Source: a candidate division WWE3 bacterium
Lineage (GTDB): Bacteria > Patescibacteriota > WWE3 > UBA101185 > UBA10185
NCBI GenBank assembly: GCA_012798115.1
Contig: JAAZNV010000005.1
Span: forward strand, 1 to 50,703
Direction: 5' to 3'
DNA length: 50,703 nucleotides
Part shown: piece by piece, positions 7,493 to 22,506 of the stretch
Layout: each line of letters begins with the position of its first letter
Position numbering within the stretch: position 1 is the stretch's first letter
Made by a program: the position numbers and the translations under genes
The notes under the pieces: generated by a model
Told to the model about the DNA's origin: nothing
What the model saw: the letters and a program-made list of their open reading frames with translations, nothing else
The model's database searches: none

Positions 7493-9370
7493 ATGGAAGG
7501 CAATATAATTTTAGGTAAAGGTGAAAATACCTTGTCAGAACAAGAAGAAGACAAAATAAGTATGGAAGAAGAATCAAAGCCAGAAGAATACCTGGATGTT
7601 GTAGATATGGGAAAAGTGGATGTTGGAGACAAAAAGGAAGAAACTTCTGCTAAGGAAGTTGTTGAGATTAAGAAAGGTTTTGAAGAGACTAGAGAACTTA
7701 AAATCTCTGGAAAGAATTTATCCAAACCATTTGATGATTATATTAAGAGATTTAAAGAAGCAGTGGTTGAAGAAAATAAGTATGCTTCAAATCCTGTATA
7801 TGTAGACGAAATAGCATCAAAGGTTGCTGTAGTTTATGAAAAAGTTAGAAAAGTTATTGATTGGAAGGAAGAACATCTGCTTAAAAGATCTGCAGTAGAA
7901 AGGATTCTAAAGAGAAGGTTAGTTTCAAAGATTTATGGGATAAATATACTTCCAGATATTAATCCAGAAGAAATAGCAGAACCTTTTGTTCAGGAACTAA
8001 TTAGAAGCGGTTATTTTCCAAATGGAAAGATAGGAAGGGAGAAGATAGTAGATATTCAAAGACTCTTGGAAAAGTACTTGTACATATTGAAAAGTGAACC
8101 AGTAAAAGCAGAGGATGTTTCAAGTGGAAAGTCTAAGAAAGAAATAAAAGCTGGAGCAAAAAAGAAGATAAATTTTTATGATTGGATTATAGGGATAGCT
8201 TCATGTGAGGTGGAAGAAATATTAGACCCCCCTTTGAGAGAAGACGCTCTAATAGATTTTATGACAGAGTGTTTATGTGACAGAATAAAGATTGTCCCAG
8301 ATGGAAAGATATCTAATGAAGAAAAATATATTCAAACATATGTTGCTGTTCATAGAACTTTATATAGTTTGGATGAGCCTATTATTAACTTTCATTTACT
8401 TAGATATAAGTATCCTCAGTTTTTTAAATCGAATAACTATACACAAGAGTTTACAGAGAACGCTCTGAAAATATGGGAAGAAATAAATGGATATTTAAAT
8501 CATCCTAAAGCTTCTGAGTTTTATGCTGTAGCAGAGAAGTATGATGCTGCTTATCTTATGGTTGGTGATTCAATGAATAAGTTGGAAAAATCCCTTGATA
8601 CTGTAGATGAGAAGGTTTCAGAGCCGCATATATTTTTATCTCTTGTTGAAAAATCCTATAAGGAAAGGTTAACAACTTTAAAGAGAAGGTTGTTAAATTT
8701 GGCTATATTTTCAACACTTTCTATATTCGTTGCTGGGGGAGCAAGCTTAATTATATTTGAGCTACCTATTGCCAAGCTTGTCCATGGTAGGTTTTATCCG
8801 TGGGCAATTGTTGCAGATATGGGCATTCCAACTGCCTTAATGTTTATTCTTGTTTGGATGATAAAGCCTCCGTCTGATGATAATTTGGATGTAGTAAAAG
8901 ATGAGGTGGATAAGGTTTCATATGTGAAAGAAGAACTTGATGTTTATGAAATTAGATTAAATAAAAAAATGAAGAAGTACCTAAATTTTATGTTTGCGTT
9001 TATTTATTTAACTGGTGGTATGGCTTCTCTTTATTTTATATATTGGGTATTTAAGATTGCTGGTGTTCCGTGGACTTCCTTGTATGTTGATACAGTAAAT
9101 GTTGCTATGGTAGTTTTTGCAGCCATGGTTATAAGACAAAGAGCTAAAGAACTAACCATAAAAGAGAAAGCAAATATTGTTGAATTTATATTAGATTTCT
9201 TTTCTATTCCTTTAGCTAAGATAGGTGCATGGTTTTCACAAAAATGGAAGGAATATAACGTTGTAAGTGCTTTCTTTACTGCTTTAATTGATTACCCTTT
9301 TTCAAGTTTCGTTGCAACAATAGAAGGTTGGAGGAATTTTATTAAGGAAAAAAAGTCAGAGATTCATTAA
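7493..9370 (+). CDS. hypothetical membrane protein (large soluble N-region, about 4 C-terminal TM helices)
   Basis: long ORF with core-like codon usage; hydrophobic segments in the last ~230 aa. Confidence 0.8.
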   Translation: MEGNIILGKGENTLSEQEEDKISMEEESKPEEYLDVVDMGKVDVGDKKEETSAKEVVEIKKGFEETRELKISGKNLSKPFDDYIKRFKEAVVEENKYASNPVYVDEIASKVAVVYEKVRKVIDWKEEHLLKRSAVERILKRRLVSKIYGINILPDINPEEIAEPFVQELIRSGYFPNGKIGREKIVDIQRLLEKYLYILKSEPVKAEDVSSGKSKKEIKAGAKKKINFYDWIIGIASCEVEEILDPPLREDALIDFMTECLCDRIKIVPDGKISNEEKYIQTYVAVHRTLYSLDEPIINFHLLRYKYPQFFKSNNYTQEFTENALKIWEEINGYLNHPKASEFYAVAEKYDAAYLMVGDSMNKLEKSLDTVDEKVSEPHIFLSLVEKSYKERLTTLKRRLLNLAIFSTLSIFVAGGASLIIFELPIAKLVHGRFYPWAIVADMGIPTALMFILVWMIKPPSDDNLDVVKDEVDKVSYVKEELDVYEIRLNKKMKKYLNFMFAFIYLTGGMASLYFIYWVFKIAGVPWTSLYVDTVNVAMVVFAAMVIRQRAKELTIKEKANIVEFILDFFSIPLAKIGAWFSQKWKEYNVVSAFFTALIDYPFSSFVATIEGWRNFIKEKKSEIH

Positions 9371-9403
9371 GTGCCTATCTTGATGTTTTTAGTGATAGGG
9401 TGA

Positions 9404-9562
9404 TTAGTTGCTTGGTGCTGACTTAGAAGGATTACCATGTTTCACCCATTGATTGTCATTTTTTATCCATGTATCCTCGTCCCCTCCAAGTACAAATCTT
9501 ATAACAAAAATTACAAGTAAAAAGATGATTGTTATTAGCAAAAAGAGTGTTTTTTTCTTCAT
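9404..9562 (-). CDS. 52-aa membrane-anchored small protein (not in ORF track)
   Basis: MKKKTLFLLITIIFLLVIFVIRFVLGGDEDTWIKNDNQWVKHGNPSKSAPSN; start overlaps the tspO stop (TAATG). Confidence 0.7.
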   Translation of the reverse strand: MKKKTLFLLITIIFLLVIFVIRFVLGGDEDTWIKNDNQWVKHGNPSKSAPSN

Positions 9563-10035
9563 TAATTTAGTAAAACTATGTATAAGTTAAGAATTGCTGC
9601 AAATGTTACCCATAAAATATAAGGGATAAGAAGAATTGCGGAAGGAGTATATATTTTGTGAAATGCTTTTATTGTATAAACAATTGCGCACCATAAAAAT
9701 ATTACGTCTATAAAAGCAAGAAGTGGGGATCTCAATCCAAAGAAAAGAATAGACCACAGCAAGTTAAGAAAAAGTTGAGCGTCATATATCCTTATTGCTC
9801 TATCTGAAGTTTCTTTATCCTGTGCCCTTTTGTTTACTAGGTATGCTGATATCGCCATCAAAATGAATAATATTGTCCAAGCTAAGGAAAATGCCCAATC
9901 CGGTGGGTTAAACATTGGTTTGTTTAAGGTGTTGTACCAACTTCTTACTGCTGGTGCAGTAACAGCTCCTCCTATTAAGGATACAAGCAAAACTTTAACC
10001 AAGTTAGAAATTATATGCTTTAGGTTTTTAAGCAT
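9562..10035 (-). CDS. tspO: TspO/MBR family membrane protein
   Basis: WYNTLNKPMFNPPDWAF, WSILFFG, LLIPYILWVTFA. Confidence 0.93.
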   Translation of the reverse strand: MLKNLKHIISNLVKVLLVSLIGGAVTAPAVRSWYNTLNKPMFNPPDWAFSLAWTILFILMAISAYLVNKRAQDKETSDRAIRIYDAQLFLNLLWSILFFGLRSPLLAFIDVIFLWCAIVYTIKAFHKIYTPSAILLIPYILWVTFAAILNLYIVLLN

Positions 10036-10162
10036 TCATTCTCATTATGCCATTGCAACTGATGCTAGTAAATGTTGCATAGGATCTATGTTGTTAGTCT
10101 GTTCATTAGACAACTAACTAATGCTTACTTAGAAAGTTTTCAAGTATTCTAATTTATAGGTT

Positions 10163-10606
10163 TTATTTATAGTATTCTCTGACTTGAAATAGTAAGTACA
10201 AAGAAAGTACTGTGCTTATTATTCCTCCAATTATATCAAAGTTAACAAGCGAGTAAATTGCACTTAGAAGGATAGAATAAAATAATAAATCCCATCCTTT
10301 TGTTGACTTAGCAAACAAGCCTGATATTGATAAACCTCTTAGCACTAAGTTTGCAATGAGGAATATTGTTAATATGAAATACCTTACGCCTACATGTGCA
10401 AACATGTAGTTCCTCATCTCGTAAACCTCAATATAAGAACCAAATCCAAGAACAGAAAGTATTGTTGGTATTGCTGCTACGACAGAAATAATTACTCCCC
10501 ATGGTGCAAGCTGTACAAGCAGATCCTTAATATTTTTAGGTAGTGCAGGAGCCTTTTTAACATACTCATCTATAGTTTTTATTAATTTTTTAATATGTTT
10601 ATCCAT
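10163..10606 (-). CDS. hypothetical multi-TM membrane protein
   Basis: several hydrophobic helices; AAGGAGG SD upstream. Confidence 0.75.
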   Translation of the reverse strand: MDKHIKKLIKTIDEYVKKAPALPKNIKDLLVQLAPWGVIISVVAAIPTILSVLGFGSYIEVYEMRNYMFAHVGVRYFILTIFLIANLVLRGLSISGLFAKSTKGWDLLFYSILLSAIYSLVNFDIIGGIISTVLSLYLLFQVREYYK

Positions 10607-10733
10607 AATTCCTCCTTAGTTAAGTAAGCTTTGCAAATAAATGCTTCTTATTAAATTAAACCTTTACGATGATGTTCATGTCAAGCAAGGAGATTGCCTT
10701 ATTCTTTGATTAGTATTTATGAATGTAGAGCTA

Positions 10734-11423
10734 TCAAACATTTAGGTCGAGTATCATTGGAAGGTGATCGGATACATTTAAATTTGGAACTGAAAATTTA
10801 TTTATATTTAAATCTGGTTTTATAAATACATAGTCTGCAAATAATTGTTTGTTGTTTGGGTATTTATTCCACGCGAGGTTGTTTCTTGTTGTTGGTATTT
10901 TGTATTTCTTTATTAAGTTTACATAACCATTCTTTTCAAACATTTCTATAGATTCAGTATGTGGGTCTAGATTAAAGTCTCCTCCTATTATTTTTATTTC
11001 ATCAAGGCCTTGGAAGAAGCTTAAAATTTCTTGTGATTGTTTTATTCTTTCTTTGGTATCGTCCTTGTGTTTTGGACGCGGTGTTCCATGAACATTACAT
11101 ATATTTATTAATTCGTTGTTGTACTTTATTTTTGTGTTTAGTGCTGTCCCAACATTTAACATCTCTTTTAATAAGTAATCGTTAGATACAATTTCCATAT
11201 CGTTTTTTATGTAGGTAGCTTCATGAAAATCATCATCTCCTTTCATATCTTTAAAGTTAAATATTTCATTGTAGTTACTGAAAATATTCTTATACATTTC
11301 TCTTGCTGCTTTACCTACTTCTTGCAGACAAAATACATTTGTATCTTTTGATTGTTCTTTTAAGAATGTTTTAATGTTGTTTATTTCGTGGTAACTCCAA
11401 GTGTTTAGGAATAATATCTTCAT
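10734..11423 (-). CDS. endonuclease/exonuclease/phosphatase (EEP) family protein
   Basis: LN, CLQEV, NVH, GGDFN, DYVF, SDHLP. Confidence 0.92.
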   Translation of the reverse strand: MKILFLNTWSYHEINNIKTFLKEQSKDTNVFCLQEVGKAAREMYKNIFSNYNEIFNFKDMKGDDDFHEATYIKNDMEIVSNDYLLKEMLNVGTALNTKIKYNNELINICNVHGTPRPKHKDDTKERIKQSQEILSFFQGLDEIKIIGGDFNLDPHTESIEMFEKNGYVNLIKKYKIPTTRNNLAWNKYPNNKQLFADYVFIKPDLNINKFSVPNLNVSDHLPMILDLNV

Positions 11424-11472
11424 TAGAAAATTATAACTTTAATATTTCTTGTGTTTCTATATGGAAAATAAA

Positions 11473-11498
11473 CCAGCGTTTTGAATAGGTAACGCTGG
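11473..11498 (-). terminator. intrinsic terminator hairpin
   Basis: CCAGCGTT...AACGCTGG with an A-run on the left. Confidence 0.6.
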
Positions 11499-11524
11499 AG
11501 ACCTTTGTAAAGATTGGGTACTTT

Positions 11525-11821
11525 CTAGTCCCTACGTGAGGATGAACTCCCACTCCCACCAAGAATAATACCTGCTCCAAGGACAAAACCAAAGTCATAC
11601 CAGTTCCCATTGTTGTGTACATCGTAAACACTTACATCATCTGTAAACAAAGAAATAAAGAACGTTATTGGAGAAATTATTCCGTGCCACAAGCCTGACC
11701 AAAATCCAGCAACTTTGCCGTTTTCATCAGCAGTTTTGACGTAAGGATTAGGCCCTGGAACGCAGGAAACCAGAAGAAACATTAGTCCAATAAGAATAAT
11801 GAACAAAAACTTTTTATTCAT
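11525..11821 (-). CDS. small predicted lipoprotein
   Basis: signal peptide with lipobox LVSC; AGFWSGLWHG...WYDFGF pattern. Confidence 0.75.
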   Translation of the reverse strand: MNKKFLFIILIGLMFLLVSCVPGPNPYVKTADENGKVAGFWSGLWHGIISPITFFISLFTDDVSVYDVHNNGNWYDFGFVLGAGIILGGSGSSSSRRD

Positions 11822-11941
11822 TTTGACTCACCTTTCTTGTTCTTTTGTTGAGTGGATTATATTATGAAATAACTACGGCGCAACCAACTAAGCGGAATAA
11901 AAATTAAGTTTCTTGTTGAGTAAATAATGGTCGGAGAAGTA

Positions 11942-11975
11942 AAAAGAGGTTTAATCAAAGGGTTAAACCTCTTTT
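11942..11975. terminator. bidirectional terminator
   Basis: AAAAGAGGTTTAA-N8-TTAAACCTCTTTT perfect inverted repeat. Confidence 0.75.
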
Positions 11976-11991
11976 GAGGAGTTGCTTAATA

Positions 11992-12591
11992 TCAGATAAA
12001 CTTGGGATACATAGTCTTGATGGCAACACTCAATAGCAACGCTTGAGCATCGTCGAAATTTGCCCTGAACTCTTTCCCCACTAAATCTTTAGGTCTTTCC
12101 ACCTCAAAGTATTTCATTACAAGAGTAAAAGCTTCTTCCTTTAAGAAAGCTGTGCTTATTGTCAACGGTGTCATATACCCTTTTGGATGGCTTTCTACCC
12201 TTATCGCCCAATAGTTTTCTTCCCGATCAAGCAAAAGATGTCTTACGTTTGGCTTAATGCGTATAATCTTCCATACATAAGGATTATACTTTTTCTCCCT
12301 TTCTCGGTAAGTGGATATTTTTAAGCCTCTTTCTTTTGGATAGTGGGATCGAAGGAAGTTTTCCAAAACTTTTTTTACATCAAATTCGAAGTAGTCTACA
12401 TCAAAAGTATGGTTTCCTTTAAAATCCCGTAGATTCTTTACCCCAAGACTTTTCATCAAAAGTTCCAAGGTTCTAGGATTTATGAGTAATGAGCCACCAG
12501 AACCAGCTCCATCTCCACTAATATGCAACCAAACTACGTAGTTTGGTTTCATTCGCTTTACAAAGTGGATCTTAGCTTTCACATTTTCCAT
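11992..12591 (-). CDS. hypothetical protein with an apparent two-fold internal repeat
   Basis: LLMKSLGVKNLRDFKG vs LVMKYFEVERPKDLVG; SD AGGAGAGG; own promoter. Confidence 0.75.
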   Translation of the reverse strand: MENVKAKIHFVKRMKPNYVVWLHISGDGAGSGGSLLINPRTLELLMKSLGVKNLRDFKGNHTFDVDYFEFDVKKVLENFLRSHYPKERGLKISTYREREKKYNPYVWKIIRIKPNVRHLLLDREENYWAIRVESHPKGYMTPLTISTAFLKEEAFTLVMKYFEVERPKDLVGKEFRANFDDAQALLLSVAIKTMYPKFI

Positions 12592-12621
12592 ATTTACCTC
12601 TCCTTTATTTGACTTTGGAGG

Positions 12622-12650
12622 ATTCTACCATACAAAACTTGTACGATCAA
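12622..12650 (-). promoter_or_regulatory. sigma70 promoter
   Basis: TTGATC-N17-TAGAAT on the minus strand. Confidence 0.65.
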
Positions 12651-12702
12651 ACACTACAAGTTATGAGCCCATTATATAGAACTTCATATGAAGTATTGTG
12701 GG
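12651..12702 (+). repeat. cassette-boundary repeat (motif 1 + motif 2)
   Basis: ACACTACAAG-N18-GAACTTCATATGAAGT-ATTGTGGG. Confidence 0.7.
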
Positions 12703-12720
12703 AGCCAATACTGGTAGAAG

Positions 12721-12755
12721 TTGACTAAAATATGTATGTATAATACACTACAGGG
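12721..12755 (+). promoter_or_regulatory. sigma70 promoter overlapping motif 1
   Basis: TTGACT-N17-TACACT, overlapping ACACTACAGGG (12745-12755). Confidence 0.5.
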
Positions 12756-12825
12756 TGTAAGTAACAGCTACTTACAAACTAGCAAAATGCTGGTTTATTG
12801 ACAATTACAGAACGTAGGAGGAGAA

Positions 12826-13851
12826 ATGGGAACGGATTCGTTGTATAACCAAAAGCTTATAAAAGCATACCCTTTTGTATCTGATATCTTATCAGAGCAG
12901 ATGGAGCCGTATAATGGGCAGGATGACGGTCGTCTAGATAACCTCTTAATCATCCGTGTGCAGAAAGCAGATGCAGACCTTATGTTTAAGCGGGCTCATA
13001 ATTTAGGACTTGGAAATAGTGATTCGTGTGCTTTTTCTACTATTCGCCAACACGAAATGCATATTGGGAAACGTGGGGAATACATGTTTGCTATTGATAA
13101 TTCGGAAAAAATTATTAACCGTGTTGACTGGCCAAGAGATCGTGAGGAACAAAGGAAGGCAGACCAGCTTTGTGTCTATGCCAGCGATATTTTCTGGTCC
13201 CAAAGGCATGAGCGTATTTACTCAGGCTCAATTATTGAGAAGGTAAAATACCTCGTTTGGGTAACTGTTGAAGCTTGGTATACAGATAATAAGTATACGG
13301 ATGACAAGTATACAGGCAACGAGAGGGGTTATAGGAGCAGATTTGGAGAGTTACTTAGTACCTCAATCCGCATCACAATTTATCAAGAGCCTGAGCAAGG
13401 GTTTGAAAAACTACTAAAGGAGTCAAATTTGTATGAAAGCCTTGTACTTGATACTCGGTTACTCCAGCGTGGCTTAATGATGAGGGATGTTGATATTATT
13501 ACAATGAGAGGCATGTTGGGAGAAATGTGTATTACATTTCAAGATGAGGTGTACTTCAATGGGATGAAGGAGATGCGTGAGAAAGTTGAGTTTCGTAGTG
13601 CATCGGGGAAGTTCGGTGCCGTCCGAGTTCTTTGTGCCGAAATGTGTGGGTGTGACTTTGTCACGTTGAGGGACGTTGATAGCCAAATTACCTTTCGAGT
13701 CTACTCAGATTTCACGCACATGCATGTAGTTGGGCAGACGGGGACACTCCCTCAAATCCGTAATCTTGTTAAAACAGTTGTACGGATGTGGAATCAAAAC
13801 ACTGAAGCAAGAAATGCGTTCAAAACAAATGAGGATCTCTATGTTGTGTAA
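12826..13851 (+). CDS. hypothetical protein with foreign-looking codon usage
   Basis: 341-aa ORF, SD AGGAGG, many CGN Arg codons unlike the core genes. Confidence 0.8.
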   Translation: MGTDSLYNQKLIKAYPFVSDILSEQMEPYNGQDDGRLDNLLIIRVQKADADLMFKRAHNLGLGNSDSCAFSTIRQHEMHIGKRGEYMFAIDNSEKIINRVDWPRDREEQRKADQLCVYASDIFWSQRHERIYSGSIIEKVKYLVWVTVEAWYTDNKYTDDKYTGNERGYRSRFGELLSTSIRITIYQEPEQGFEKLLKESNLYESLVLDTRLLQRGLMMRDVDIITMRGMLGEMCITFQDEVYFNGMKEMREKVEFRSASGKFGAVRVLCAEMCGCDFVTLRDVDSQITFRVYSDFTHMHVVGQTGTLPQIRNLVKTVVRMWNQNTEARNAFKTNEDLYVV

Positions 13852-13872
13852 ATAAATAGACACTCAACCTAA

Positions 13873-13904
13873 AAGGTGTGCGTGAAGCAATTCATTCACA
13901 CCTT
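13873..13904. terminator. terminator hairpin
   Basis: AAGGTGTG...CACACCTT followed by a T-tract. Confidence 0.65.
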
Positions 13905-13981
13905 ATTTTTGTATTTAAAAGCAAAGGAAGGAGACTGTATTATGAGGATATGTTAAATTAGTACCCTTTAGCTAGTTGTCT

Positions 13982-14015
13982 ATTTAGCATAGAACCTTTA
14001 TACGAAAGGTTGTAG
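13982..14015 (+). repeat. cassette-boundary repeat (motif 2), dif-like
   Basis: ATTTAGCATAG-AACCT-TTATACGAAAG-GT-TGTAG. Confidence 0.6.
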
Positions 14016-14037
14016 ATGTGACTAATAAAAGAGTGTT

Positions 14038-14910
14038 TTATCCCAACTTAATCATTAAGGTTCCTAAAGACATTACTATTGCTGCAATCCAGCTGTATCT
14101 TGTTGGTTTGTCCCTGAGGAATAAGTAGCTAAAAATTAAAACAAAGAATATTTGCAATCTTTTTATTCCCAAAACTAGTGCAATAGGCCCACCTGTAAAA
14201 GCAGAGAAAACAAGTAGAGTGGATATGCCATAGGTAAGACCATTTGCAAGTAAAATAACAAAGTTATCTTTGAATTCTTTAAACCACTTTTTATGTTCTT
14301 TTTTAAATAAGTATGCAGTTAAGATGACAATCATAATCATATCTTCAACTAACAGGGTAAATGCTGCGTTTATTGGTTGGGTATTGTTTATTCCTATCTT
14401 ATCGAAAATTGCAGTAAGGGCATTTAGCATTATGGCAAAAAGGAAAAGAAGATAAGATTTGTTGGTAAATAAGAGCTTAAGGGGTTTTAAGAGATCTTCC
14501 TTGGCTTGATCTGCATTTAAGATATAAGAACCTATGATTGTGAGGAATAAACCAATTACAGGGACAAGTCTCAAAGACTCTGACAAAAATAGTAGACCGA
14601 AGATATAAGTAAAAAATCCGTTAAAAGCTGCTAATGGGAAAACTTTAGATACCGAATTGTTCTTTATGGTTTCGTTAGATATGGTTTTTGAAAAAATAAA
14701 TGTTAACGAAGAAGCAACTACTCCAAGGAAAAACATTTGGTTTAAAGAAGGCAATCCATTTTTTATTGCAAAGTAAGCAATCAAAGGAAGAGATAAAGTA
14801 AAAAGCGACCAGGTTAGCACAGTTGCACTTACTTTATTTAAAACCTTTTTATTTAAAGTTATCTCTACTGCGCCTGTAATAGCTGAACAAAATGCTAACC
14901 AAAACCACAT
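14038..14910 (-). CDS. EamA/DMT family transporter
   Basis: about 10 TM helices in two repeats, LFLSE and LFLRDK ends. Confidence 0.88.
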   Translation of the reverse strand: MWFWLAFCSAITGAVEITLNKKVLNKVSATVLTWSLFTLSLPLIAYFAIKNGLPSLNQMFFLGVVASSLTFIFSKTISNETIKNNSVSKVFPLAAFNGFFTYIFGLLFLSESLRLVPVIGLFLTIIGSYILNADQAKEDLLKPLKLLFTNKSYLLFLFAIMLNALTAIFDKIGINNTQPINAAFTLLVEDMIMIVILTAYLFKKEHKKWFKEFKDNFVILLANGLTYGISTLLVFSAFTGGPIALVLGIKRLQIFFVLIFSYLFLRDKPTRYSWIAAIVMSLGTLMIKLG

Positions 14911-14997
14911 GGGGTAATTATAACAAGAGAGCTTCTTTGTGTAATAAAGGTAGTTTTATTGAATGATTAAGTGGCTGTTTTCTCTATTACTTTATGT

Positions 14998-15339
14998 TTA
15001 AAAGTTATATTGTTCTAACCAATTTAGGAATAAAGTTTTGTCATCTTAAGTTGTAACTCTTAAAACGCAGCCCTCTACCATCAAAGAGTGTCCTATATAC
15101 CTAGTAGTGTCTGCAATCTGCTAAATATTCTTCATTCTTGCTTGGGTTGAAATCCATTAGTGGAATGTGTTCAGTCTTTCCTTTGTTTAATCAACTTTAG
15201 AGAGGAATCCTATTTGGTATAGTTCTGGAATCTCTCTTTCTAGCTTTTCAATAAAGTCTCTTCTAAGAATATCATCTCTATAAAACCAATAGGGATTTCT
15301 CCCACTCTCAATATGTTGTAATGATTTATATTGATATGG
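14998..15339 (-). pseudogene. possible decayed gene of unknown family
   Basis: 114-codon frame reading PYQYKSLQHIESGRNPYWFYRDDILRRDFIEKLEREIPEL...LNWLEQYNF* with 4 internal stops, in an otherwise empty 600-bp gap. Confidence 0.3.
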
Positions 15340-15440
15340 CTAAAAGTTGATTTTGTTATTCGTTTATTGGAGGTAAGTGTGCTGTTCTCATGAGGAGGTT
15401 ATGCATTACCTTTATTTGTGTTCAAGATTTGCCTCATTAG

Positions 15441-15456
15441 GAACTTTATACGAGGA
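15441..15456 (+). repeat. cassette-boundary motif 2
   Basis: (CCTCATTAG)GAACTTTATACGAGGA. Confidence 0.6.
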
Positions 15457-15478
15457 ATTAGTGGCGTTTGGAAAATAA

Positions 15479-15508
15479 AAAACCAGGCTTTTTGTAGAGT
15501 CTGGTTTT
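15479..15508. terminator. bidirectional terminator
   Basis: AAAACCAGGCT...AGTCTGGTTTT. Confidence 0.65.
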
Positions 15509-15514
15509 GTTTGT

Positions 15515-15781
15515 TCATTTATAAAGCTTATCTGTATCTGTAGCTTCTTTTACTGCGAAATTAGCATCTTCCCCTAATTCTTTGAGTAATTCCAACAATC
15601 TGAGTGTTCTCCTTGCATTTTCACGTAGAAGATTCTCACGTGTGTCCACGTCTGTTATAGTTGATGTTGTTAAGAGTGCTTGGCCATATCTTATGGTTTT
15701 TGCTAATTCTGTTTTCAGGTTTTTTACCCTAAAATTTCTCTTAATTTCTTTAAACGAGTTTTTAATTGTTTTCCGACACAT
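15515..15781 (-). CDS. small helical hypothetical protein
   Basis: SD AGGAGAG; promoter TTGCTG-N17-TATAAT (15820-15848); terminator downstream. Confidence 0.7.
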   Translation of the reverse strand: MCRKTIKNSFKEIKRNFRVKNLKTELAKTIRYGQALLTTSTITDVDTRENLLRENARRTLRLLELLKELGEDANFAVKEATDTDKLYK

Positions 15782-15850
15782 AGCTCTCCTTGTCTTTTGT
15801 ATCTTGAATATTAACTTGGATTATATATTAAAATACTTTAACCAGCAACC

Positions 15851-15896
15851 ACTACAGGGTATTAACTCTCGATGTGAACTTTATGCGAACTGCAGT
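15851..15896 (+). repeat. cassette-boundary repeat (motif 1 + motif 2)
   Basis: ACTACAGG-N17-GAACTTTATGCGAACTGCAGT; the ends ACTACAG/CTGCAGT are near-inverted. Confidence 0.7.
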
Positions 15897-15948
15897 ATAT
15901 GTTTTCTTGGTATACTTTAAAAGTAATTGTTTCTATTAAGGAGGTTTT

Positions 15949-16461
15949 ATGGATAAACTAGAAAAAGATAATTTATCACTCAAAGAAAAATTAGAATCTA
16001 GCATGACACAAGAGCAGGTAGAAATTTTCCATCAAAAAATAGAAAAGTTGGGAGGAGAACTCCATGATATTTGGAGAGAATCTAGAAAAAAAGAAGATGG
16101 TACTTTTGAACCTCGTGTAAAAGCTACAAAAGATAATGAGTGGATTAATTCTCATGGAACTAACCAGGTTGACATTGCAAATACTAGCTTTGAGAGTTTG
16201 CCAAACGACTGGCAAGTAGAAAACAGGGCATCAGCCGAAGTTGCAGTCTCTTTGATATATGAGGCGAAGATTAATAAGAAAGCAATAGATAGTGCTTTTG
16301 TTGAAGAAGCTAGTTCTGTTGTACATGATAAGTGGCTTGAGAGAAACTCTAGTTGGGCACCTGCTGAGCAAAAAGTAAGTTATTCAGAACTGCCGGAAGC
16401 CGAAAAGGAAAAAGATAGGGCTATTATTAGAAAAGGGGTAGATGTAGTTAAGCAAGATTGA
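15949..16461 (+). CDS. RyR-repeat-like domain protein
   Basis: two copies of HDxW...(F/Y)xxLPxxxxxxNR/DR: HDIW...FESLPNDWQVENR and HDKW...YSELPEAEKEKDR. Confidence 0.65.
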   Translation: MDKLEKDNLSLKEKLESSMTQEQVEIFHQKIEKLGGELHDIWRESRKKEDGTFEPRVKATKDNEWINSHGTNQVDIANTSFESLPNDWQVENRASAEVAVSLIYEAKINKKAIDSAFVEEASSVVHDKWLERNSSWAPAEQKVSYSELPEAEKEKDRAIIRKGVDVVKQD

Positions 16462-16528
16462 TTCTTGTTAATGACACAAAAAGACATTATTGTCTTCTCA
16501 TACAAAGGGAAGGTAATGAAGGGATAAA

Positions 16529-16574
16529 AAACACCGTAAGGTAGATAATCACTTTTCTACATAATACGGTGTTT
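16529..16574. terminator. bidirectional terminator between convergent genes
   Basis: AAACACCGTA...TACGGTGTTT. Confidence 0.65.
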
Positions 16575-16588
16575 GTGAAAGCTTAGCA

Positions 16589-17182
16589 CTATGTTAACTG
16601 ATTGCCGTATTTCCAAAATTTTTTTAGAAATGCTACTGCCAAGAGATTTGTGAAACCAGATAGTCCTATGTAATCCAACTCTTGTTCTAACTTATCTTGG
16701 ATATCAGCAGGTTTGCTACCTTTACGTATTTCTTGCTGCATGGCAACTGCCCAGCCTTGAATGAATTTAATAATCTCTTTTGATAGGTTGTCCTTTCGTT
16801 GGGCCCAACATGTTCTTAGATACGGAATGAGTTTATACCAAGGAACTTCCATCTTTTCTGTAGAAAGAAGTTGGTAAACCCGTTGTTTTTTAGCTTTGCA
16901 TTCCGCATGGTATTTTGCACACTCCTGTTTCCACAATGCTTTTCGAAAAGGGGTGCAACTTTGTTTAAGAGCATATTTCCACTGACGTAAAGCCTCTTTC
17001 TTGGTCATTTCTGGAGAAACAATAATTTGAATACCATTGAATAAACAAGTTATTCTTGTTCCCGATAACTTAGAACGATTAACCATCTCACTCAAGACAC
17101 AATCAATATGTTCACCTGCATGAGGTCGGTAGCATACAAAACTATTTACACGCTTTTTCCAGTTGTTTGACAAACTATACAT
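16589..17182 (-). CDS. hypothetical protein, possibly phage-like family
   Basis: FNG and GLSGF...W-x-YG-x-QL segments recall phage hypotheticals (from memory, unverified); SD and promoter present. Confidence 0.7.
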   Translation of the reverse strand: MYSLSNNWKKRVNSFVCYRPHAGEHIDCVLSEMVNRSKLSGTRITCLFNGIQIIVSPEMTKKEALRQWKYALKQSCTPFRKALWKQECAKYHAECKAKKQRVYQLLSTEKMEVPWYKLIPYLRTCWAQRKDNLSKEIIKFIQGWAVAMQQEIRKGSKPADIQDKLEQELDYIGLSGFTNLLAVAFLKKFWKYGNQLT

Positions 17183-17227
17183 TAATATTCTCCTCTCCTT
17201 TTATTGTTTTATTTAGGTTAGTTTAAG

Positions 17228-17267
17228 ATTATACCTTGAATACATTCTTGCGTCAAACACTACAGGG
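17228..17267 (-). promoter_or_regulatory. sigma70 promoter abutting motif 1
   Basis: minus strand CCCTGTAGT-GT-TTGACG-N17-TATAAT. Confidence 0.75.
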
Positions 17268-17316
17268 TTTGCAAGGTTAGTGAGTGTTTAAGGGAATAAA
17301 AAAGAACCTCTTGAAA

Positions 17317-17625
17317 TTATCTTTGAGGTTCAGTTAGTTCCACTGCAGTGATATCTAATAACCTGTTAATAATCGTTAGGAAATCACGCCAACGGCAATT
17401 CCAATTGTAAGGACTAGATATAATAAATTGTGAAGCTAGCCCACCTGCTTTAGTTGTCTCCTCGTTTGGGTATGTTCCACAATCATTTAACTCAGCCATC
17501 TTGGCCCGTACTTTATCAGCAACCTCATTTCTTACGTTTAGTATCATTTCAAACTTTAGGTGGCTGATTTCAATTTTAGCCACAGTAACGTTTGCCTTTT
17601 TCCATTCAAACGTTTGATTTGCCAC
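17317..17625 (-). CDS. hypothetical protein
   Basis: GTG start with SD AGGAGG; promoter TTGATT-N17-TATTCT (17665-17693). Confidence 0.7.
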   Translation of the reverse strand: MANQTFEWKKANVTVAKIEISHLKFEMILNVRNEVADKVRAKMAELNDCGTYPNEETTKAGGLASQFIISSPYNWNCRWRDFLTIINRLLDITAVELTEPQR

Positions 17626-17693
17626 AACCCCTCCTTATTTGGATTTTCTAGAATTCTAACACTTAGAATATCATAAGTGCCCTAATCAATCAA

Positions 17694-17740
17694 GCTATAG
17701 GATATTGTCTCTCATTGCAGAATTTCATGCGAAGCGTGGC
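17694..17740 (+). repeat. cassette-boundary repeat (motif 1 variant + motif 2)
   Basis: GCTATAGG-N18-GAATTTCATGCGAAGC-GTGGC. Confidence 0.7.
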
Positions 17741-17751
17741 AGGGAATTGTT

Positions 17752-18810
17752 TTATTTCAGAAAGTAGTTGTCGTTCGAGAATTTTACCTGCTCAATAAAG
17801 ATTTTACTGAAGGCCACAGCACTTAGCTGTTCATAAAATAGAATAGTTGCTTTTTTGAACTGATCTATATCTACGTTTCTGTATGATAGTGGTAGTAAGT
17901 CATTTGCAAGAAGTATGGCGTTGCATAGCATTCTGGCAGTTCTCTTGTTTCCATCAGAATAAGGTTGGACATATGGAAACATAACGCTGGCAATAAATGC
18001 CTTAAGATATGGATCCGTTACCTTATTTACCATTTCAACAGTTTTTTCTAAAGCCTCCTTAAGTTGATGCTCGTTGCCTAAGGGTCTGTAGATGGTTCCT
18101 GTTATTCCAACCTCGTGTCTCCTAATTCCAGTTGATATCTCAAGTCCTTTGACCAAGGTGTTATGAAGTTGGTTTATAACTGATATAGAAATCGTTTTGA
18201 AATTTCTTTTGTTTGCTAGAATATTATCAAAGGCATGTTTATGATTTAAGATCATTAGGGTTTCTGCTTTACTTTTACCACTTGCCTCTTTTTGTTCCTT
18301 GATTAAAGACTCTGTTTCTAACAAGGTATATGTATTTCCTTCTATTTTTGATGATTTCCAAGATAGCTCTATGGTAAATCTTTCCAGTTCCCTTCTGATT
18401 AAATCTGGGGAAATACCCTTTGTTTTATCTGAGAAACTTACCGTTGCGTTCTTTAATGGCATTAATATATCCGCTAGTTGAGGATCTGTTAAATATTCAA
18501 AGATTTTACTGTCAAATGTTTTTTTGGCTCCCACTCGTTGATCAGGGTCGTATGAAAAGTAATTTTCTATATCAAAAACTCTCAAAAGAGGATTATGGGA
18601 AATTGGGTAGTACATCGTTGCCTTGGCTTTGCCTTCGGATCTGATTAACTTTAATTTTATTAGTAAGTTAAGATCTCTTATCAGTGTGGGTTTAGAGACG
18701 CTGTATGTTGGGAATAGCTTTTCAGCTATCTTTTCTCTTAAAATTCCGCCTGATTGATTGATGATGTTTGAAATGTAACGTTGGCGTGGTGTAAGAATCG
18801 TATCATTCAT
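17752..18810 (-). CDS. Fic-domain protein with N-terminal winged HTH
   Basis: SKPTLIRDL wHTH, SSKIEGN, QPYSDGNKRTAR; start placed at ATG 18810 just after the promoter (ORF track extends to 18846). Confidence 0.9.
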   Translation of the reverse strand: MNDTILTPRQRYISNIINQSGGILREKIAEKLFPTYSVSKPTLIRDLNLLIKLKLIRSEGKAKATMYYPISHNPLLRVFDIENYFSYDPDQRVGAKKTFDSKIFEYLTDPQLADILMPLKNATVSFSDKTKGISPDLIRRELERFTIELSWKSSKIEGNTYTLLETESLIKEQKEASGKSKAETLMILNHKHAFDNILANKRNFKTISISVINQLHNTLVKGLEISTGIRRHEVGITGTIYRPLGNEHQLKEALEKTVEMVNKVTDPYLKAFIASVMFPYVQPYSDGNKRTARMLCNAILLANDLLPLSYRNVDIDQFKKATILFYEQLSAVAFSKIFIEQVKFSNDNYFLK

Positions 18811-18846
18811 ATATATAAATCGTATCATTTTGAGACGATTTGTCAA
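18796..18846 (-). promoter_or_regulatory. Fic promoter with putative operator repeats
   Basis: TTGACA-N16-TACGAT; AATCGTATCATT twice plus an inverted copy TGAGACGATTT. Confidence 0.65.
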
Positions 18847-18865
18847 TCCCTACATATGTGGGAGG

Positions 18866-19065
18866 CAATTATATTTTTATGACCTGGGCATAAGAAACAC
18901 TATTGTAGATGACTTCAGTGAGTTGGAGCTTAGAACTGATCTCGGATGTGTTTGGAGAATTTTTTAATTGTTGAGAGATTAAAGTATAGGGAAAATTCCG
19001 ACATCTTTGCTAACCAATACTTTTGGAGGACCTATGATAAAGGAGAGATTGATTTGGTGGAATAA
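18866..19065 (+). pseudogene. fragment of a COG1373/DUF4143 ATP-binding protein C-terminal domain
   Basis: QLYFYDLGIRNTIVDDFSELELRTDLG /frameshift/ ENFLIVERLK...YFWRTYDKGEIDLVE*. Confidence 0.8.
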
Positions 19066-19093
19066 AAAGAGTTGAAAATTAATTCAACTCTTT
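19066..19093. terminator. bidirectional terminator
   Basis: AAAGAGTTGAA-N6-TTCAACTCTTT. Confidence 0.7.
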
Positions 19094-19111
19094 ATTAAAA
19101 AGTAGTAATAA

Positions 19112-19393
19112 CTAAAGATCATGTTCTTCCTTTGGTACGTGTAGATTTTCGTCCAAAAACTTAATGAGATTCTGAAGAACTACAGTAAAAAAGATTTCCA
19201 GTTTGTAGAAGTAAAAATCAGTGTGCTCGCTATTCTTCTCAATGTAAGGTCCTTGTATAGGAATCTCTTTTAATATTTTTCTTATTTCTTGTTGAACATC
19301 TCCCGAGATTCTATCAGTGACTCTTAGAATCATCATGTCTTTTGTTGGCAGGGACTCAAGACGAGCCTTGGTAGGCCATATATACAGTATCAT
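19112..19393 (-). CDS. hypothetical protein (93 aa)
   Basis: ATG 19393 with SD AAGGAG; the longer ORF-track start falls inside the promoter. Confidence 0.7.
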   Translation of the reverse strand: MILYIWPTKARLESLPTKDMMILRVTDRISGDVQQEIRKILKEIPIQGPYIEKNSEHTDFYFYKLEIFFTVVLQNLIKFLDENLHVPKEEHDL

Positions 19394-19421
19394 TTCTATC
19401 TCCTTAACTTTGTTTGTTGGA

Positions 19422-19460
19422 ATTATATAGAAACAACAAACTTGTGTCAACTACTACAGG
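19422..19460 (-). promoter_or_regulatory. consensus sigma70 promoter abutting motif 1
   Basis: minus strand CCTGTAGT-AG-TTGACA-N17-TATAAT, 4 nt after the tRNA-Asn CCA. Confidence 0.8.
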
Positions 19461-19464
19461 ATGT

Positions 19465-19539
19465 TGGCTCCCCCGAGTGGATTCGAACCACTAACCTTGT
19501 CCTTAACAGGGACCTGCTCTACCGTTGAGCTACAGGGGA
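19465..19539 (-). tRNA. tRNA-Asn(GTT)
   Basis: TCCCCTGTAGCTCAACGGTAGAGC...CT-GTT-AA...GGTTCGAATCC...GCCA. Confidence 0.95.
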
Positions 19540-19565
19540 ATACTTAGCGTACAGATACTATCACA

Positions 19566-20429
19566 CTAATTTTTAGGGTTCAATGCTCCTTCTTTTTCCT
19601 TAAACATCTTATCTAAAACAATAAAAGAAAGAAAAGTATTTAGCACAAAAAACCAAGGATAAGCAGAAACATCTAAACTAAATAAGCTAAATAACGTTTC
19701 AACAATAATTGGTAATGTCATTGTGTGTATTCCTATTCTACATGCAGATAAGAAATTAATTTTCTTTTTCTTTAACAAGGATAAAAGATAAACTGCCAAA
19801 CCTATCCATAAAATGTACATAAGTTTGTAACCAAAGAAATCAAACAGAATCTGCCCAACAAACAACACTAAAGGCAGCAAAAAAGGAACATACTTAATGT
19901 ATTTATAAACATTATTTATTCCTTCAATAGCCTTTGACTTATCAATGTCTGCATTAGGCAAATCCTTTACAGGGTAAGCCTTAATACCAGAAGCATTGTC
20001 ATTAGTTAAAATATTACTTTCATTAACCAAAGCAAATGTCTTGAAGCTACTAAAATCATTAATAGTTCCTTGTTTATAAAAAACAACAGCATTATCAACA
20101 TTAGCACTATACTTTTCTTTAATAGATTGAGGCATTGGAATGATATAGGGTTCTGGCTTGTTTATACTCCATTTTCCATCCTTAATGCTTATAACTAGAT
20201 CATCTGGGTAAATATTCTTAACTTCTTCAACCCCAGTCTTTAACCATGCTTTAGTTTCAGGCACCATTTTTATACTAACAAAGGAAGTAAAAATTAAAGA
20301 TACTAAAACAGCTAACATTAAGTAATACTTAAAAGTAAAGGAAAACTTAGTTTCCAAAAGCTCTTTGTAGTACTCTGGTGAAGATATACTCTTCTTAAAG
20401 ACATAAAAAAATGTTTTTAATTTATTCAT
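19566..20429 (-). CDS. DUF1189-like membrane protein
   Basis: KKSISSPEYY N-terminus, TM + soluble domain + 4 TM, HTMTLP. Confidence 0.65.
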   Translation of the reverse strand: MNKLKTFFYVFKKSISSPEYYKELLETKFSFTFKYYLMLAVLVSLIFTSFVSIKMVPETKAWLKTGVEEVKNIYPDDLVISIKDGKWSINKPEPYIIPMPQSIKEKYSANVDNAVVFYKQGTINDFSSFKTFALVNESNILTNDNASGIKAYPVKDLPNADIDKSKAIEGINNVYKYIKYVPFLLPLVLFVGQILFDFFGYKLMYILWIGLAVYLLSLLKKKKINFLSACRIGIHTMTLPIIVETLFSLFSLDVSAYPWFFVLNTFLSFIVLDKMFKEKEGALNPKN

Positions 20430-20492
20430 AGCAATATTCTAGCAAATAAATTAATAAGAAACAGATGTAACCTGGAATGATAAAATAATATT

Positions 20493-20843
20493 ATGAATTA
20501 TCAAATATCATCAGACAATATAGAACTAACTCCAAGCATGGAAGTATTAACAAAGGAGAAATTTGAAAGAATAGAGTCAAGAACTAAAAACCTTCCTAAA
20601 GATTCTTGCTTTGCAAGAATTGTACTAAACTCTGCCCCTGAAAATAGATTTAATGTGAAAGTAAATTTAAGTTTAAGTAGTAAGGAATACTTTTCTGATG
20701 AAGAAGACTACTCCCTTGAAGGAGCTTTGATTAAAGTAGTGGAAGAATTGTTGGAAATGATGGAAAAAGATAGTATAGTCCAAAGAAGAAAAGACCTAAA
20801 GGAAGAAGAAAGAATAGAAAAAGCACTAACAGAAGAGGTATGA
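20493..20843 (+). CDS. hpf: ribosome hibernation factor (HPF/RaiA family)
   Basis: MNYQISSDNIELTPSM...EKF N-terminal pattern, size. Confidence 0.8.
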   Translation: MNYQISSDNIELTPSMEVLTKEKFERIESRTKNLPKDSCFARIVLNSAPENRFNVKVNLSLSSKEYFSDEEDYSLEGALIKVVEELLEMMEKDSIVQRRKDLKEEERIEKALTEEV

Positions 20844-20847
20844 GTTT

Positions 20848-20923
20848 GGGTGATTAGCTCAATTGGCAGAGCAAGCGTCTTATACACGCTCGGTTCCAGG
20901 TTCGAGTCCTGGATCACCCACCA
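20848..20923 (+). tRNA. tRNA-Ile(TAT)
   Basis: GGGTGAT/ATCACCC acceptor, AGCGT-CT TAT AC-ACGCT anticodon arm, discriminator A, CCA. Confidence 0.92.
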
Positions 20924-20951
20924 TAATAAACTATTTTCCTGGTTCATTTAA

Positions 20952-21287
20952 ATGATATTAATACTTAAGGATAAAGCCACGAAAGAACAAATTAAAAATA
21001 TTACTGAAGTGTATCCTGGGTACACAAAGGTGGTTGTTGATATAGAATGTGGTTTGTTGTCGGCAGGGGGTGAATATCATATAGATTGTGAGCAAACATT
21101 GCTTGAAAATGGAAGTATTCAAGAGAATTTATGGGGAGGAGGTTATAGGTTTGAAAACAAAGAAGTTGATTTTATAGGATTAACAAACTACAAAGCAGGT
21201 ATTAAACACTTCTCTTACGAAGTATCAATTCCAGAAATCAGGGAAAGGATGGAAGTAATTATTAGGGGAATCTTTGATAATGAATAA
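20952..21287 (+). CDS. DUF5674-like protein
   Basis: KVVVDIE...GGEYHIDCEQTLLENGSIQENLWGG. Confidence 0.75.
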   Translation: MILILKDKATKEQIKNITEVYPGYTKVVVDIECGLLSAGGEYHIDCEQTLLENGSIQENLWGGGYRFENKEVDFIGLTNYKAGIKHFSYEVSIPEIRERMEVIIRGIFDNE

Positions 21288-21552
21288 GTCTAAGTTGAAT
21301 ATAAGAATGGATCTCATGCGTGTTGCAAAAATAGCATTAGAATTGGATAAGCCTTTTGAAGAAAATATTGCAAACGTTTTTATTAACAAAGCTAGGTCAG
21401 AATTTGAAGAGAACCTGAAAGATGAAAATAAACTTAAAGATGAGCTTATTTCTTACCAGAAGGAGATTCCAATCATAGCTCTTGATACTAAGAAGAGAAA
21501 ACAGTGGGGAGAAAAGATAATGACTATTGCTTCAAGATTAGGAACTTTCTAG
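21280..21552 (+). CDS. small helical hypothetical protein
   Basis: overlaps the upstream stop (ATGAATAA); MDLMRVA...GEKIMTIASRL. Confidence 0.65.
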   Translation: MNKSKLNIRMDLMRVAKIALELDKPFEENIANVFINKARSEFEENLKDENKLKDELISYQKEIPIIALDTKKRKQWGEKIMTIASRLGTF

Positions 21553-21630: not shown

Positions 21631-22506
21631 TTACAAGATAGAAAGTTCTGTCTTATCCATCTTTTCTGGTTTTTCAACGTAATCAAGATATTTCTCAGTT
21701 GTTGAAATTCTCTTGTGTCCTGCTACCTTAGCAAGATAAGTAATGTTAACACCATTTCTAATATGATTAGCAACAAAGGTATGTCTTAAATCATTTACCT
21801 TAGCGTTTTCTACACCTGCTAATCTAAAAAATCTGTCAATTGTAGATCTAATGTTTCTAATAAGAAGGGGTCTACCTGATTTTGTAATAAATACGTTAGT
21901 AGATTTATCTGATTTTACTCTAGTGTTATTAATATATTTACTTAATGCCTCAACAGCTGCTTTATTAAGAGGAACTATTCTTTCTTCCCTGTTGTTTTTT
22001 CTAGCAATAAACAATGAACCTGTTTCTCCTTTAATATCTAAATCTTCCAGCTTCATTCCTGCAAGCTCTGAAATAGTAATTCCTGCTTGGAGGAGAACTT
22101 CAATCATTGCGTATGATCTATTATCGTCCTTTGCAGCATCTCTTAATGCTCTATATTCAAGCTTAGTTAAAATTCTTGGAGCTTTTGTTTCAAACTTAGG
22201 GTGCTTTAATTGGTCTGAGATATCTTCTTTTAATATACCTTCTTTGTTTAAATACTTAATAAAAGTTCTAGCAGCATTTGTCTTTCTTGAAATAGACTTT
22301 GGAGTGTAATTTTCATTAGCTAAACTCTTCATAAATGATTCAAGATGTTCTATCTTCATACCTTCAACATCATCTACACCTTCTTTTGCTAAGAAAGTTA
22401 CTATTTGTTCAATATCTTTATTGTAAGCAACAAGAGTTGCTTCTGACTTCCCATCAGCTTTTAATTTTTCTATAAACTTTTTATGAACTGTTTGTAATTT
22501 AGTCAT
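21631..22506 (-). CDS. XerC/XerD-like tyrosine recombinase
   Basis: N-terminal SAM-like domain (SEATLVAY..D), ERIVPL, NDLRHTF, AGHKRISTTEKY; first catalytic Arg position reads GITISEL. Confidence 0.9.
   Translation of the reverse strand: MTKLQTVHKKFIEKLKADGKSEATLVAYNKDIEQIVTFLAKEGVDDVEGMKIEHLESFMKSLANENYTPKSISRKTNAARTFIKYLNKEGILKEDISDQLKHPKFETKAPRILTKLEYRALRDAAKDDNRSYAMIEVLLQAGITISELAGMKLEDLDIKGETGSLFIARKNNREERIVPLNKAAVEALSKYINNTRVKSDKSTNVFITKSGRPLLIRNIRSTIDRFFRLAGVENAKVNDLRHTFVANHIRNGVNITYLAKVAGHKRISTTEKYLDYVEKPEKMDKTELSIL

Follow-up and report, generated by a model that had tools for sequence, protein, structure and literature searches.

Several described systems build tandem arrays of small genetic units at fixed sites. 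Tandem accretion at the 3' ends of tRNA genes is reported for the cis-mobilizable elements (CIMEs) of streptococcal integrative and conjugative element (ICE) and integrative and mobilizable element (IME) families (PMC5704250), the tycheposon islands of Prochlorococcus accrete at tRNA genes (10.1101/2020.12.28.424599), and the ssrA islands of Dehalococcoides are a further tandem accretion system (PMC3146451), as far as the cited passages describe them. The pdif modules of Acinetobacter plasmids are, in the cited portion of their description, bounded by inversely oriented sites, with C and D modules alternating (PMC13141974); the XerC arm of pdif site 6 of pMSHR_A204 is listed there as GCTTCGTATAA (Table 1). 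Here, we compare these systems, together with integrons and large serine recombinase elements, with a locus in a candidate division WWE3 bacterium whose genome measures 0.76 Mb (33% G+C, 14 contigs). The stretch analyzed, hereafter the window, is one whole contig of 50.7 kb, in which a preliminary description had noticed five co-oriented copies of a short motif resembling recombinase-binding arms. We consider it probable that these motifs are decayed recombination sites of a small mobile gene-cassette array built onto the 3' end of the tRNA-Asn(GTT) gene. In our labels, G stands for genomes, L for fetched loci, C for contigs of the window's own genome (G000), and X for public sequencing runs; for runs X4, X6, and X10, the comparison covered contigs only.

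Four matches to the motif GAAYTTYATRYGA are present in the window, at 12679, 15441, 15876, and 17720, all on the plus strand, against an expectation of 0.04 (sd 0.20), and none of 100 shuffles contained at least four copies. The fifth copy, at 13992, is this element lengthened by a single base (GAAC-C-TTTATACGAAAG), and was found at E 1.1e-4 by a profile that was made from the window sites and their genus relatives and includes this copy, so that the score is circular. The claim of five co-oriented copies therefore holds, with the fifth one base longer, and the CYCATT/CTCGAT block reported in front of most copies is equally real: it derives by decay from CCCCATAC, the family consensus, which reads GTATGGGG on the opposite strand. 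A weak sixth copy proposed at 16498 found no support in the profile scan (E 6.7), and further degenerate sites at ~11860, ~14990, and ~10100, picked by eye or through a 77% inverted repeat, were not recovered by the profile. In the whole genome, the pattern RAAYTTYATRCGAR gave five matches, three of them in the window, compared with none for the reversed control. The genome-wide scan that the preliminary description had proposed, together with a comparison with the chromosomal dif site, yielded extra site-like elements beyond the five window copies only on contigs C6 (three) and C2 (one), and no chromosomal dif was found with which to compare them. An Rfam scan of 9000–24000 returned tRNAs only, apart from one match far under its threshold (28 vs. 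228.9 bits).

The motif is a degenerate form of a 28-nt site whose consensus on the opposite strand reads (c)AaAc-TTCGNATAAAGTTCTGTATGGGGAGCCA; GAACTTYATRYGAAG, as first reported, corresponds to CTTCGNATAAAGTTC on that strand. Nearly invariant in sequence, the 28-mer has T, A, or G at its free position in all but one of 51 unique copies. Allowing up to three mismatches, it occurs in 22 of the 86 genomes of the host's family, with no match for the reversed control, and none of the 48 genomes sampled from 17 further families of the class contains it. For a 22-nt version, there were 44 matches compared with 2 in controls, the exact 28-mer was found in 25 metagenome stretches, and two versions of the site had no match in a viral collection. 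Structurally, a conserved 19-nt arm (TTCGNATAAAGTTCTGTAT), which contains a 5-bp palindrome and the free loop position, is followed by a 9-nt core, GGGGAGCCA. Co-oriented arrays of two to five such sites are found in seven other genomes (G070, G097, G014, G063, G003, G105, and G067) and in metagenome loci. That the 28-mer stays nearly invariant across genera (0–3 mismatches) argues for selection acting on it.

The anchor of the array is tRNA-Asn(GTT), on the minus strand at 19465..19539 (predicted by ARAGORN; 65 bits with the Rfam tRNA model). The last 9 nt of the family site are the 3' end of this tRNA, both being GGGGAGCCA, and all five window sites lie downstream of that end in the orientation of the tRNA. 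An array placed directly 3' of tRNA-Asn(GTT) and oriented along it was observed at 10 of 26 site-bearing loci (the window and nine relatives from several genera), as well as at four metagenome loci, while in G021, G107, and G071 the distance from the tRNA to a site is 11–15 kb, and in G099 ~2 kb. On the tRNA's other side, the gene order is conserved (FtsH, two tRNA-Met, DivIC, a Xer paralogue, tRNA-Ile, S30AE, DUF1189, and tRNA-Asn); synteny with relatives ends exactly at the 3' end of tRNA-Asn, beyond which nothing is common with the window. The tRNA-Ile of this block (20848–20923, plus strand), kept across the family beside the Xer-like gene, has the anticodon TAT, which is uncommon for tRNA-Ile in bacteria. 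A second array in the genome stands behind tRNA-Arg(CCT); among the 50 tRNAs, no other has a 3' end as similar to that of tRNA-Asn as its TCGGGGGTACCA.

Three further places touch on tRNA ends. In the window's genome, tRNA-Glu(CTC) (C13:39772-39846; 3' end GGGGTCACCA) is directly followed by CCCTGTAGTATTTGAC and a −10-like box, and tRNA-Ile(GAT) (C2:102052-102128) is followed by TTGACACCCTGTAGTAC; both may be further docking points or remnants. At ~920–945 of L079, a 23-nt fragment of the tRNA-Asn 3' end, running from the T-loop to the acceptor, lies ~60 nt after tRNA-Ile(GAT) and ahead of two sites, and looks like an attachment remnant displaced to another tRNA.

The units between sites are small and re-used. 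Across 47 intervals (site to site, or tRNA to first site), lengths range from 385 to 4388 bp with a median of ~730 bp, usually with one reading frame; of the 92 frames, 63 are directed away from the tRNA. No Pfam family was assigned to 40 of the 56 frames of at least 80 aa scanned from relatives; the remainder include an Mrr restriction endonuclease, an AbiEii toxin, and GNAT, HTH, SDR, radical SAM, and Kelch proteins. The window's own cassettes encode a Fic protein, an EamA transporter, a protein ending in a Tad4-like domain, and unknowns. Recombinase families were matched neither by the 56 frames nor by any cassette frame of the window or of C6, and tblastn with both Xer-like proteins of the genome found no match in the metagenome loci. 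Individual cassettes recur in other contexts: the window's 199-aa cassette has a counterpart in G003 at 62% protein identity and its EamA cassette one at 86%, and in G003 the two are adjacent, in reversed order and with a site before each, whereas in the window they are separated by a 341-aa cassette. G012 has a single cassette, which is also found behind a site in G071, a member of another genus, at 61% identity, and G105 and G067, from different genera, have cassettes that are 91–94% identical. The earlier proposal that the motifs are recombination-type sites and not operators of a regulon is supported: the cassettes between the motifs are unrelated and turn up elsewhere in different orders, the core of the motifs equals a tRNA 3' end, and one copy lies between convergent genes.

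Comparison of loci places the edge of the cassettes. L070 and L040 have an upstream cassette end and its site in common and diverge right after GGGGAGCCA, and in L027 the sequence that follows the CCA of the tRNA is homologous to the sequence that follows an internal site. A contig of run X6 follows the window at ~98–99% identity up to 12665, a position within the site 1 core, beyond which it carries a different site-like arm (reverse complement …TTTCGTATAAAGTCCAGTATGTGTAC); in another X6 contig, the match begins at 19465, the last base of tRNA-Asn, after unlike sequence. The window and X6 differ through ATATAATGGG vs. GTATGTGTAC and are alike from CTCATAAC onward. Parts of 12666–19464 are uncovered in X6 and X10; uncovered stretches were not counted as evidence, and the comparison with these runs consists only of the two loose-ended contigs. 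We weighed three exchange registers, namely around CGNATA, in AGTTCT, and in the core. The mapped junctions fall ~14 nt to the right of the cut expected for a XerC-type enzyme at the left edge of the spacer. The cassette edge is in or at the 9-nt core, such that the 19-nt arm belongs to the upstream cassette and the sequence after the core to the downstream one.

Read outward from the tRNA, the window array begins with a sigma-70-like promoter (TTGACA-17-TATAAT, 12/12; 19422..19450, minus strand), which stands right after the tRNA, is preceded by CCTGTAGTAG, and points into cassette 1 (17743..19464, minus strand), where a small frame (19112–19450) and the Fic-domain protein (17752–18846) are found. 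Site 5, the copy at 17720, occupies 17690..17742 (minus strand) and has a degenerate core (E 4.6e-8 with the circular profile). Cassette 2 (15898..17689, minus strand) contains frames at 17317–17625 (minus), 16589–17182 (minus), and 15949–16461 (plus); the C-terminal 70 residues of the second match Pfam Tad4, a type I Thoeris inhibitor (E 9.6e-11), so that its product would be a predicted anti-defense-like domain in a chromosomal cassette of a bacterium. Site 4, the copy at 15876 (15847..15897, minus strand), is followed by CCCTGTAGTGGTTGC and a promoter-like stretch that leads into the 88-aa gene (15515–15781) of cassette 3 (15460..15846, minus strand). Next come site 3, the copy at 15441 (15418..15459, minus strand; E 0.12 with the family profile), and cassette 4 (14016..15417, minus strand) with the EamA-type transporter (14038–14910). 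Site 2, the copy at 13992 (13967..14015, minus strand), has a palindrome with a matched extra C and G (AACCTT..AAGGTT) and no GGGGAGCCA-like core. Cassette 5 (12708..13966), with a 341-aa frame at 12826–13851, is on the plus strand, inverted relative to the rest of the array. Site 1, the copy at 12679 (12649..12707), is assigned to no single strand and consists of two core-bearing halves placed head to head around a perfect 14-bp palindrome, ACTTCATATGAAGT: the minus half (…ATGGGCTCA) is followed by a promoter into 11992–12591, and the plus half (12680–12707, …GTGGGAGCCA; E 1 with the profile) by a promoter-like stretch toward 12826–13851. Cassette 6 (11880..12648, minus strand) carries the 199-aa frame (11992–12591) with its own promoter, and the array has no defined distal end. 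Each of the five copies is intergenic.

Our promoter reading is based on individual consensus matches and on the count of a motif that follows some of the sites. CCTRTAG..TTGAC occurs within 35 nt after 11 of 51 strong sites, compared with 1 in 2000 random 35-mers; the fuller form is CCTATAG..TTGA with a −10-like hexamer, and the same motif follows the window's tRNA-Asn. Two observations concern the EamA cassette. A contig of run X4 skips 65 bases (15229–15295) and has 9 extra bases just to the left of site 3 (15428), so that strains differ by indels in the long spacer that separates site 3 from the EamA gene. A 90-aa EamA fragment in the first interval of the C6 array (L003 4488–4760; G000 C6:26487-26759) scores E 1.4e-4, below the Pfam cut-off, and is possibly a decayed copy of the window's EamA cassette type.

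Read along the tRNA, a cassette of such an array begins immediately behind the 9-nt core GGGGAGCCA, carries mostly one gene, and ends with the 19-nt arm, followed again by the core; at about one-fifth of the strong sites, a promoter-like stretch of the cassette's own (CCTATAG..TTGAC-17-TATAAT) comes next. In the mechanism that we propose, which follows the classical logic of elements that target tRNA genes, a circular cassette carrying arm and core would recombine with the tRNA end or with a resident site, strand exchange would take place inside the shared core, and successive insertions would push older cassettes outward. The enzyme would act in trans on cassettes that have no recombinase of their own. 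The candidates, likeliest first, are the two universal Xer-like tyrosine recombinases, an integrase of a helper element missing from the assemblies, and the large serine recombinases that target tRNA-Asn. A more specific version of this idea would see here an integron-like capture platform without an integron integrase, confined to one family of ultra-small bacteria, in which the tRNA-Asn 3' end serves as attI, the 28-nt site as attC, and a housekeeping Xer recombinase acts in trans with an arginine-less paralogue as its non-cleaving, site-selecting partner; we regard this version as unlikely. Full-text searches, whose coverage leaves out most subscription journals, found no description of such a system in these bacteria.

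Several observations weigh against a recombining cassette array. No recombinase is linked to the sites, which are recognizable in only 22–25 of the 86 family genomes, and in the same-genus genome G002 the 6.4 kb behind tRNA-Asn contain no site. To the right of the core, the sequence shows no conservation, an unusual feature if the core is that of a two-armed tyrosine recombinase. In the window itself, the cores are degenerate (GGGCTCA, GAGGCAAAT, GAGAGTTA, and GAGAGACA), and promoter-like matches in 11800–19700 show no enrichment over shuffles (15 vs. 25.7). The layout of site 1, the inverted cassette 5, and the symmetric insertion in site 2 look like the products of exchange at the palindrome; the other junctions lend no support to such an exchange, and we could not fit site 1 into the core model. 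We saw neither a circular cassette nor an empty/filled pair from one population; the one small two-site contig examined as a candidate circle, a metagenome contig of 1025 nt, has only the 29-nt site in common and does not form a circle. The strain of run X4 carries the same array almost unchanged, with small indels only, so that the window copy shows no sign of current activity. Finally, the replacement of whole arrays between strains could be due to homologous recombination in the flanks, and if so, the junctions would date old insertions and not present mobility. Given that its cores are degenerate and that it is nearly unchanged in another strain, the window array is likely a frozen relic, and it is probably old.

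One alternative to a cassette array is that the repeats are non-functional scars, in which integrase-bearing islands, for instance those with large serine recombinases, inserted serially into tRNA-Asn and decayed to CIME-like remnants, such that the repeats are leftover attR sites. Accretion followed by decay is a documented route to such tandems, at least in the passages cited (PMC5704250; 10.1101/2020.12.28.424599), and would fit the degenerate cores of the window. Large serine recombinase genes are convergent with and abut tRNA-Asn in G106, G003, G021, G107, and G071, and adjoin sites in L070, L080, and L040. However, the outer repeat beyond the serine-recombinase region of G021 consists of a 16-nt copy of the tRNA end with an arm unrelated to the 28-mer, which indicates that the 28-mer is not the site of that element. 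The serine recombinases found by tRNA-Asn are only 24–51% identical to those of G000, with differing best matches, while the 28-mer is nearly invariant, and they are equally common in site-bearing (16 of 25) and site-less (38 of 61) genomes, nine of the site-bearing ones having none. The units are small and uniform, and no recombinase fragment was found in any cassette frame scanned. On balance, we rate serial scars as improbable.

The serine recombinases have a pattern of their own. Their genes are convergent with tRNA-Asp, -Gln, -Asn, or -His at eight loci (L051, L087–L090, L093, L096, and L097), and in the window's genome with tRNA-Asp (gene C4:18171-19646; tRNA 19617–19694) and tRNA-Gln (gene C7:10751-12046; tRNA 12219–12292). 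These genes end next to the tRNA 3' end, with either an overlap or a gap of up to a few hundred bases, which suggests a family of integrative elements that carries the tRNA 3' end inside or just after the recombinase gene. Contig C10 of the same genome encodes a 531-aa serine recombinase and has, in its last 800 bases and at 3735–3760, a different repeat, AGTTCCAACAAGTTCC(C)AA…GTGCTCAGCCA, followed by the same CCTGTAGTGTTTGAC promoter-like motif; this may be a second site family.

A further alternative, which follows the likeness that had first drawn attention to the motif, is that the sites are dif-like (of the pdif/IMEX type), with a XerC/XerD-like pair of the host binding ACTTCGNATAA and GTATGGGGAGC and exchanging strands in the spacer AGTTCT, as for the Acinetobacter plasmid modules. 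The likeness to a XerC arm was confirmed at the sequence level: the left arm ACTTCGNATAA agrees at 10 of 11 positions with that of pdif site 6 (GCTTCGTATAA), its variable position is the one that also varies among pdif arms (the T, G, or C in front of ATAA), and an 11-6-11 layout, ACTTCGNATAA-AGTTCT-GTATGGGGAGC on the tRNA-sense strand, spans the conserved 28-mer exactly. Moreover, two Xer-like proteins are the only tyrosine recombinases in the genome, the pair is present in nearly all 86 family genomes, and in many genomes one of the genes lies 2–8 kb from tRNA-Asn. The mechanism of dif and pdif sites nevertheless fits poorly. The junctions fall in the core, rightward of the putative second arm and outside the spacer, and the tRNA keeps its own CCCG/CTCG before GGGGAGCCA, bases that a crossover in the spacer would have replaced. 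The right arm has only TATG in common with the XerD arm (TTATGTTAATT; Table 1 of PMC13141974). Sites in every array are co-oriented, in contrast to the alternating sites that pdif modules need. No chromosomal dif with the arm of the site was found. In five genomes of ~0.7–1.4 Mb (G028, G107, G071, G084, and G012), the sites are 50–160 kb from dnaA and hence not at the replication terminus. The window contains no GC-skew switch, and the site has several copies per genome, unlike the single dif. We accordingly give little credence to a dif-type mechanism. For a chromosomal dif in itself, a genome scan with degenerate dif-type patterns gave nothing convincing, a candidate at C2:59272 was not conserved in 13 genomes of the genus, and a pattern of the site's left arm with KTATG had as many hits as the reversed control in five near-complete genomes. 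The motif may also resemble, as the preliminary description proposed, an arm of loxP, a site with 13-bp inverted arms around an 8-bp spacer on which a Cre-type recombinase acts.

The Xer-like paralogue next to the array ("XerW"; 21631..22506, minus strand, 291 aa) is a core gene of the family in conserved order with tRNA-Asn. Its Arg I is replaced by Thr or Ser in 18 of 19 orthologues (L044–L061 and the window; GITISEL for GLRVSEL), which counts against the dif-type reading, and the histidine of HxxR is Asn, with no change at Arg II, the GH histidine, or the tyrosine. It is at most a candidate DNA-binding partner. The second recombinase (C14:3929-4996, 355 aa) has canonical catalytic residues, and both proteins score below the XerC and XerD equivalog cut-offs. 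The genome contains no Y1 (IS200/IS605-type) transposase.

The remaining possibility, raised at the outset, that the quasi-palindrome is the operator of a dimeric repressor acting on neighboring promoters, is very improbable. In its favor, the arm core is palindromic, perfectly so in site 1, which stands between two divergent promoter-like stretches, and the matched C/G insertion of site 2 preserves the symmetry. Against it, site 2 lies between convergent gene ends, and sites 3 and 5 follow a gene, with a promoter far off or none; two of the copies stand after one gene and before the end of another, and such intergenic placement by itself speaks against an operator at a promoter. The distance from the element to start codons is not fixed, and the element travels with unrelated cassettes, ends in a copy of the tRNA 3' end, and marks the points where gene order breaks off between genomes.

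Such bacteria have genomes of <1 Mb and few recognized mobile elements, yet small sets of genes vary from strain to strain. A dedicated dock for cassettes behind a single tRNA gene, if true, would explain where strain-variable genes enter, and the cargo includes restriction, abortive-infection toxin, Fic, acetyltransferase, and anti-defense-like genes. The 28-mer would then be a handle with which to harvest accessory genes from metagenomes, as is done for integrons by attC-targeted PCR. A mechanistic question also arises, namely by which enzyme cassettes without an integrase are moved when nearly all of their conserved site is to one side of the point of exchange. For the window itself, the answer is more modest: its array is a decayed member of the family.

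How, then, does a cassette array on tRNA-Asn compare with the known systems? Like integrons, it has co-oriented, small, mostly single-gene cassettes of largely unknown function that are bounded by sites and grow from one fixed chromosomal site, and the cargo likewise includes toxin, restriction, and acetyltransferase genes. Unlike integrons, it has no IntI, since the two recombinases reach only 53 and 123 bits with TIGR02249 against a cut-off of 265. Its sites are a near-invariant 28-mer with only a 5-bp palindrome, whereas attC sites are variable in sequence with a conserved imperfect hairpin; its anchor is a tRNA 3' end, and some cassettes bring their own promoter. Compared with the Acinetobacter pdif modules, as they appear in the cited portion of the literature, there is agreement in the integrase-less modules with 28-bp sites, in the arm ACTTCGNATAA with its 10 of 11 positions in common with a pdif XerC-binding site, and in that the only tyrosine recombinases here are Xer-type proteins of the host. 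The differences are that the sites are co-oriented, that the second arm is a tRNA 3' end, that the array is chromosomal, behind a tRNA, and not on a plasmid, and that the junctions lie outside the spacer. With large serine recombinase integration, the system has in common that such genes abut tRNA-Asn, -His, -Asp, and -Gln, and that the conserved span, when the optional CCTATAG is included, nears 50 bp; it differs in that the only readable outer repeat from an element of this type combines an unrelated arm with 16 nt of tRNA identity, and in that the presence of these recombinases does not track the sites.

The tRNA accretion islands resemble the array in their insertion at a tRNA 3' end, in the partial tRNA-end repeats between units, and in that older units lie outward, insofar as the cited passages describe them; targeting of the tRNA is reflected here in the 9-nt identity with tRNA-Asn and in arrays that start at its last base in 10 loci. 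According to the same passages, those islands carry or once carried an integrase and are kilobases long, whereas the units here have a median of ~730 bp, with no recombinase or fragment of one. Also unlike those islands as described there, the site has only 9 nt in common with the tRNA, and its conserved part is an arm borne by the cassette and near-identical across genera. The system thus works like an integron or a tRNA accretion island and is a member of neither, because it has no IntI, no attC-type sites, and no integrase or integrase remnants in its units.

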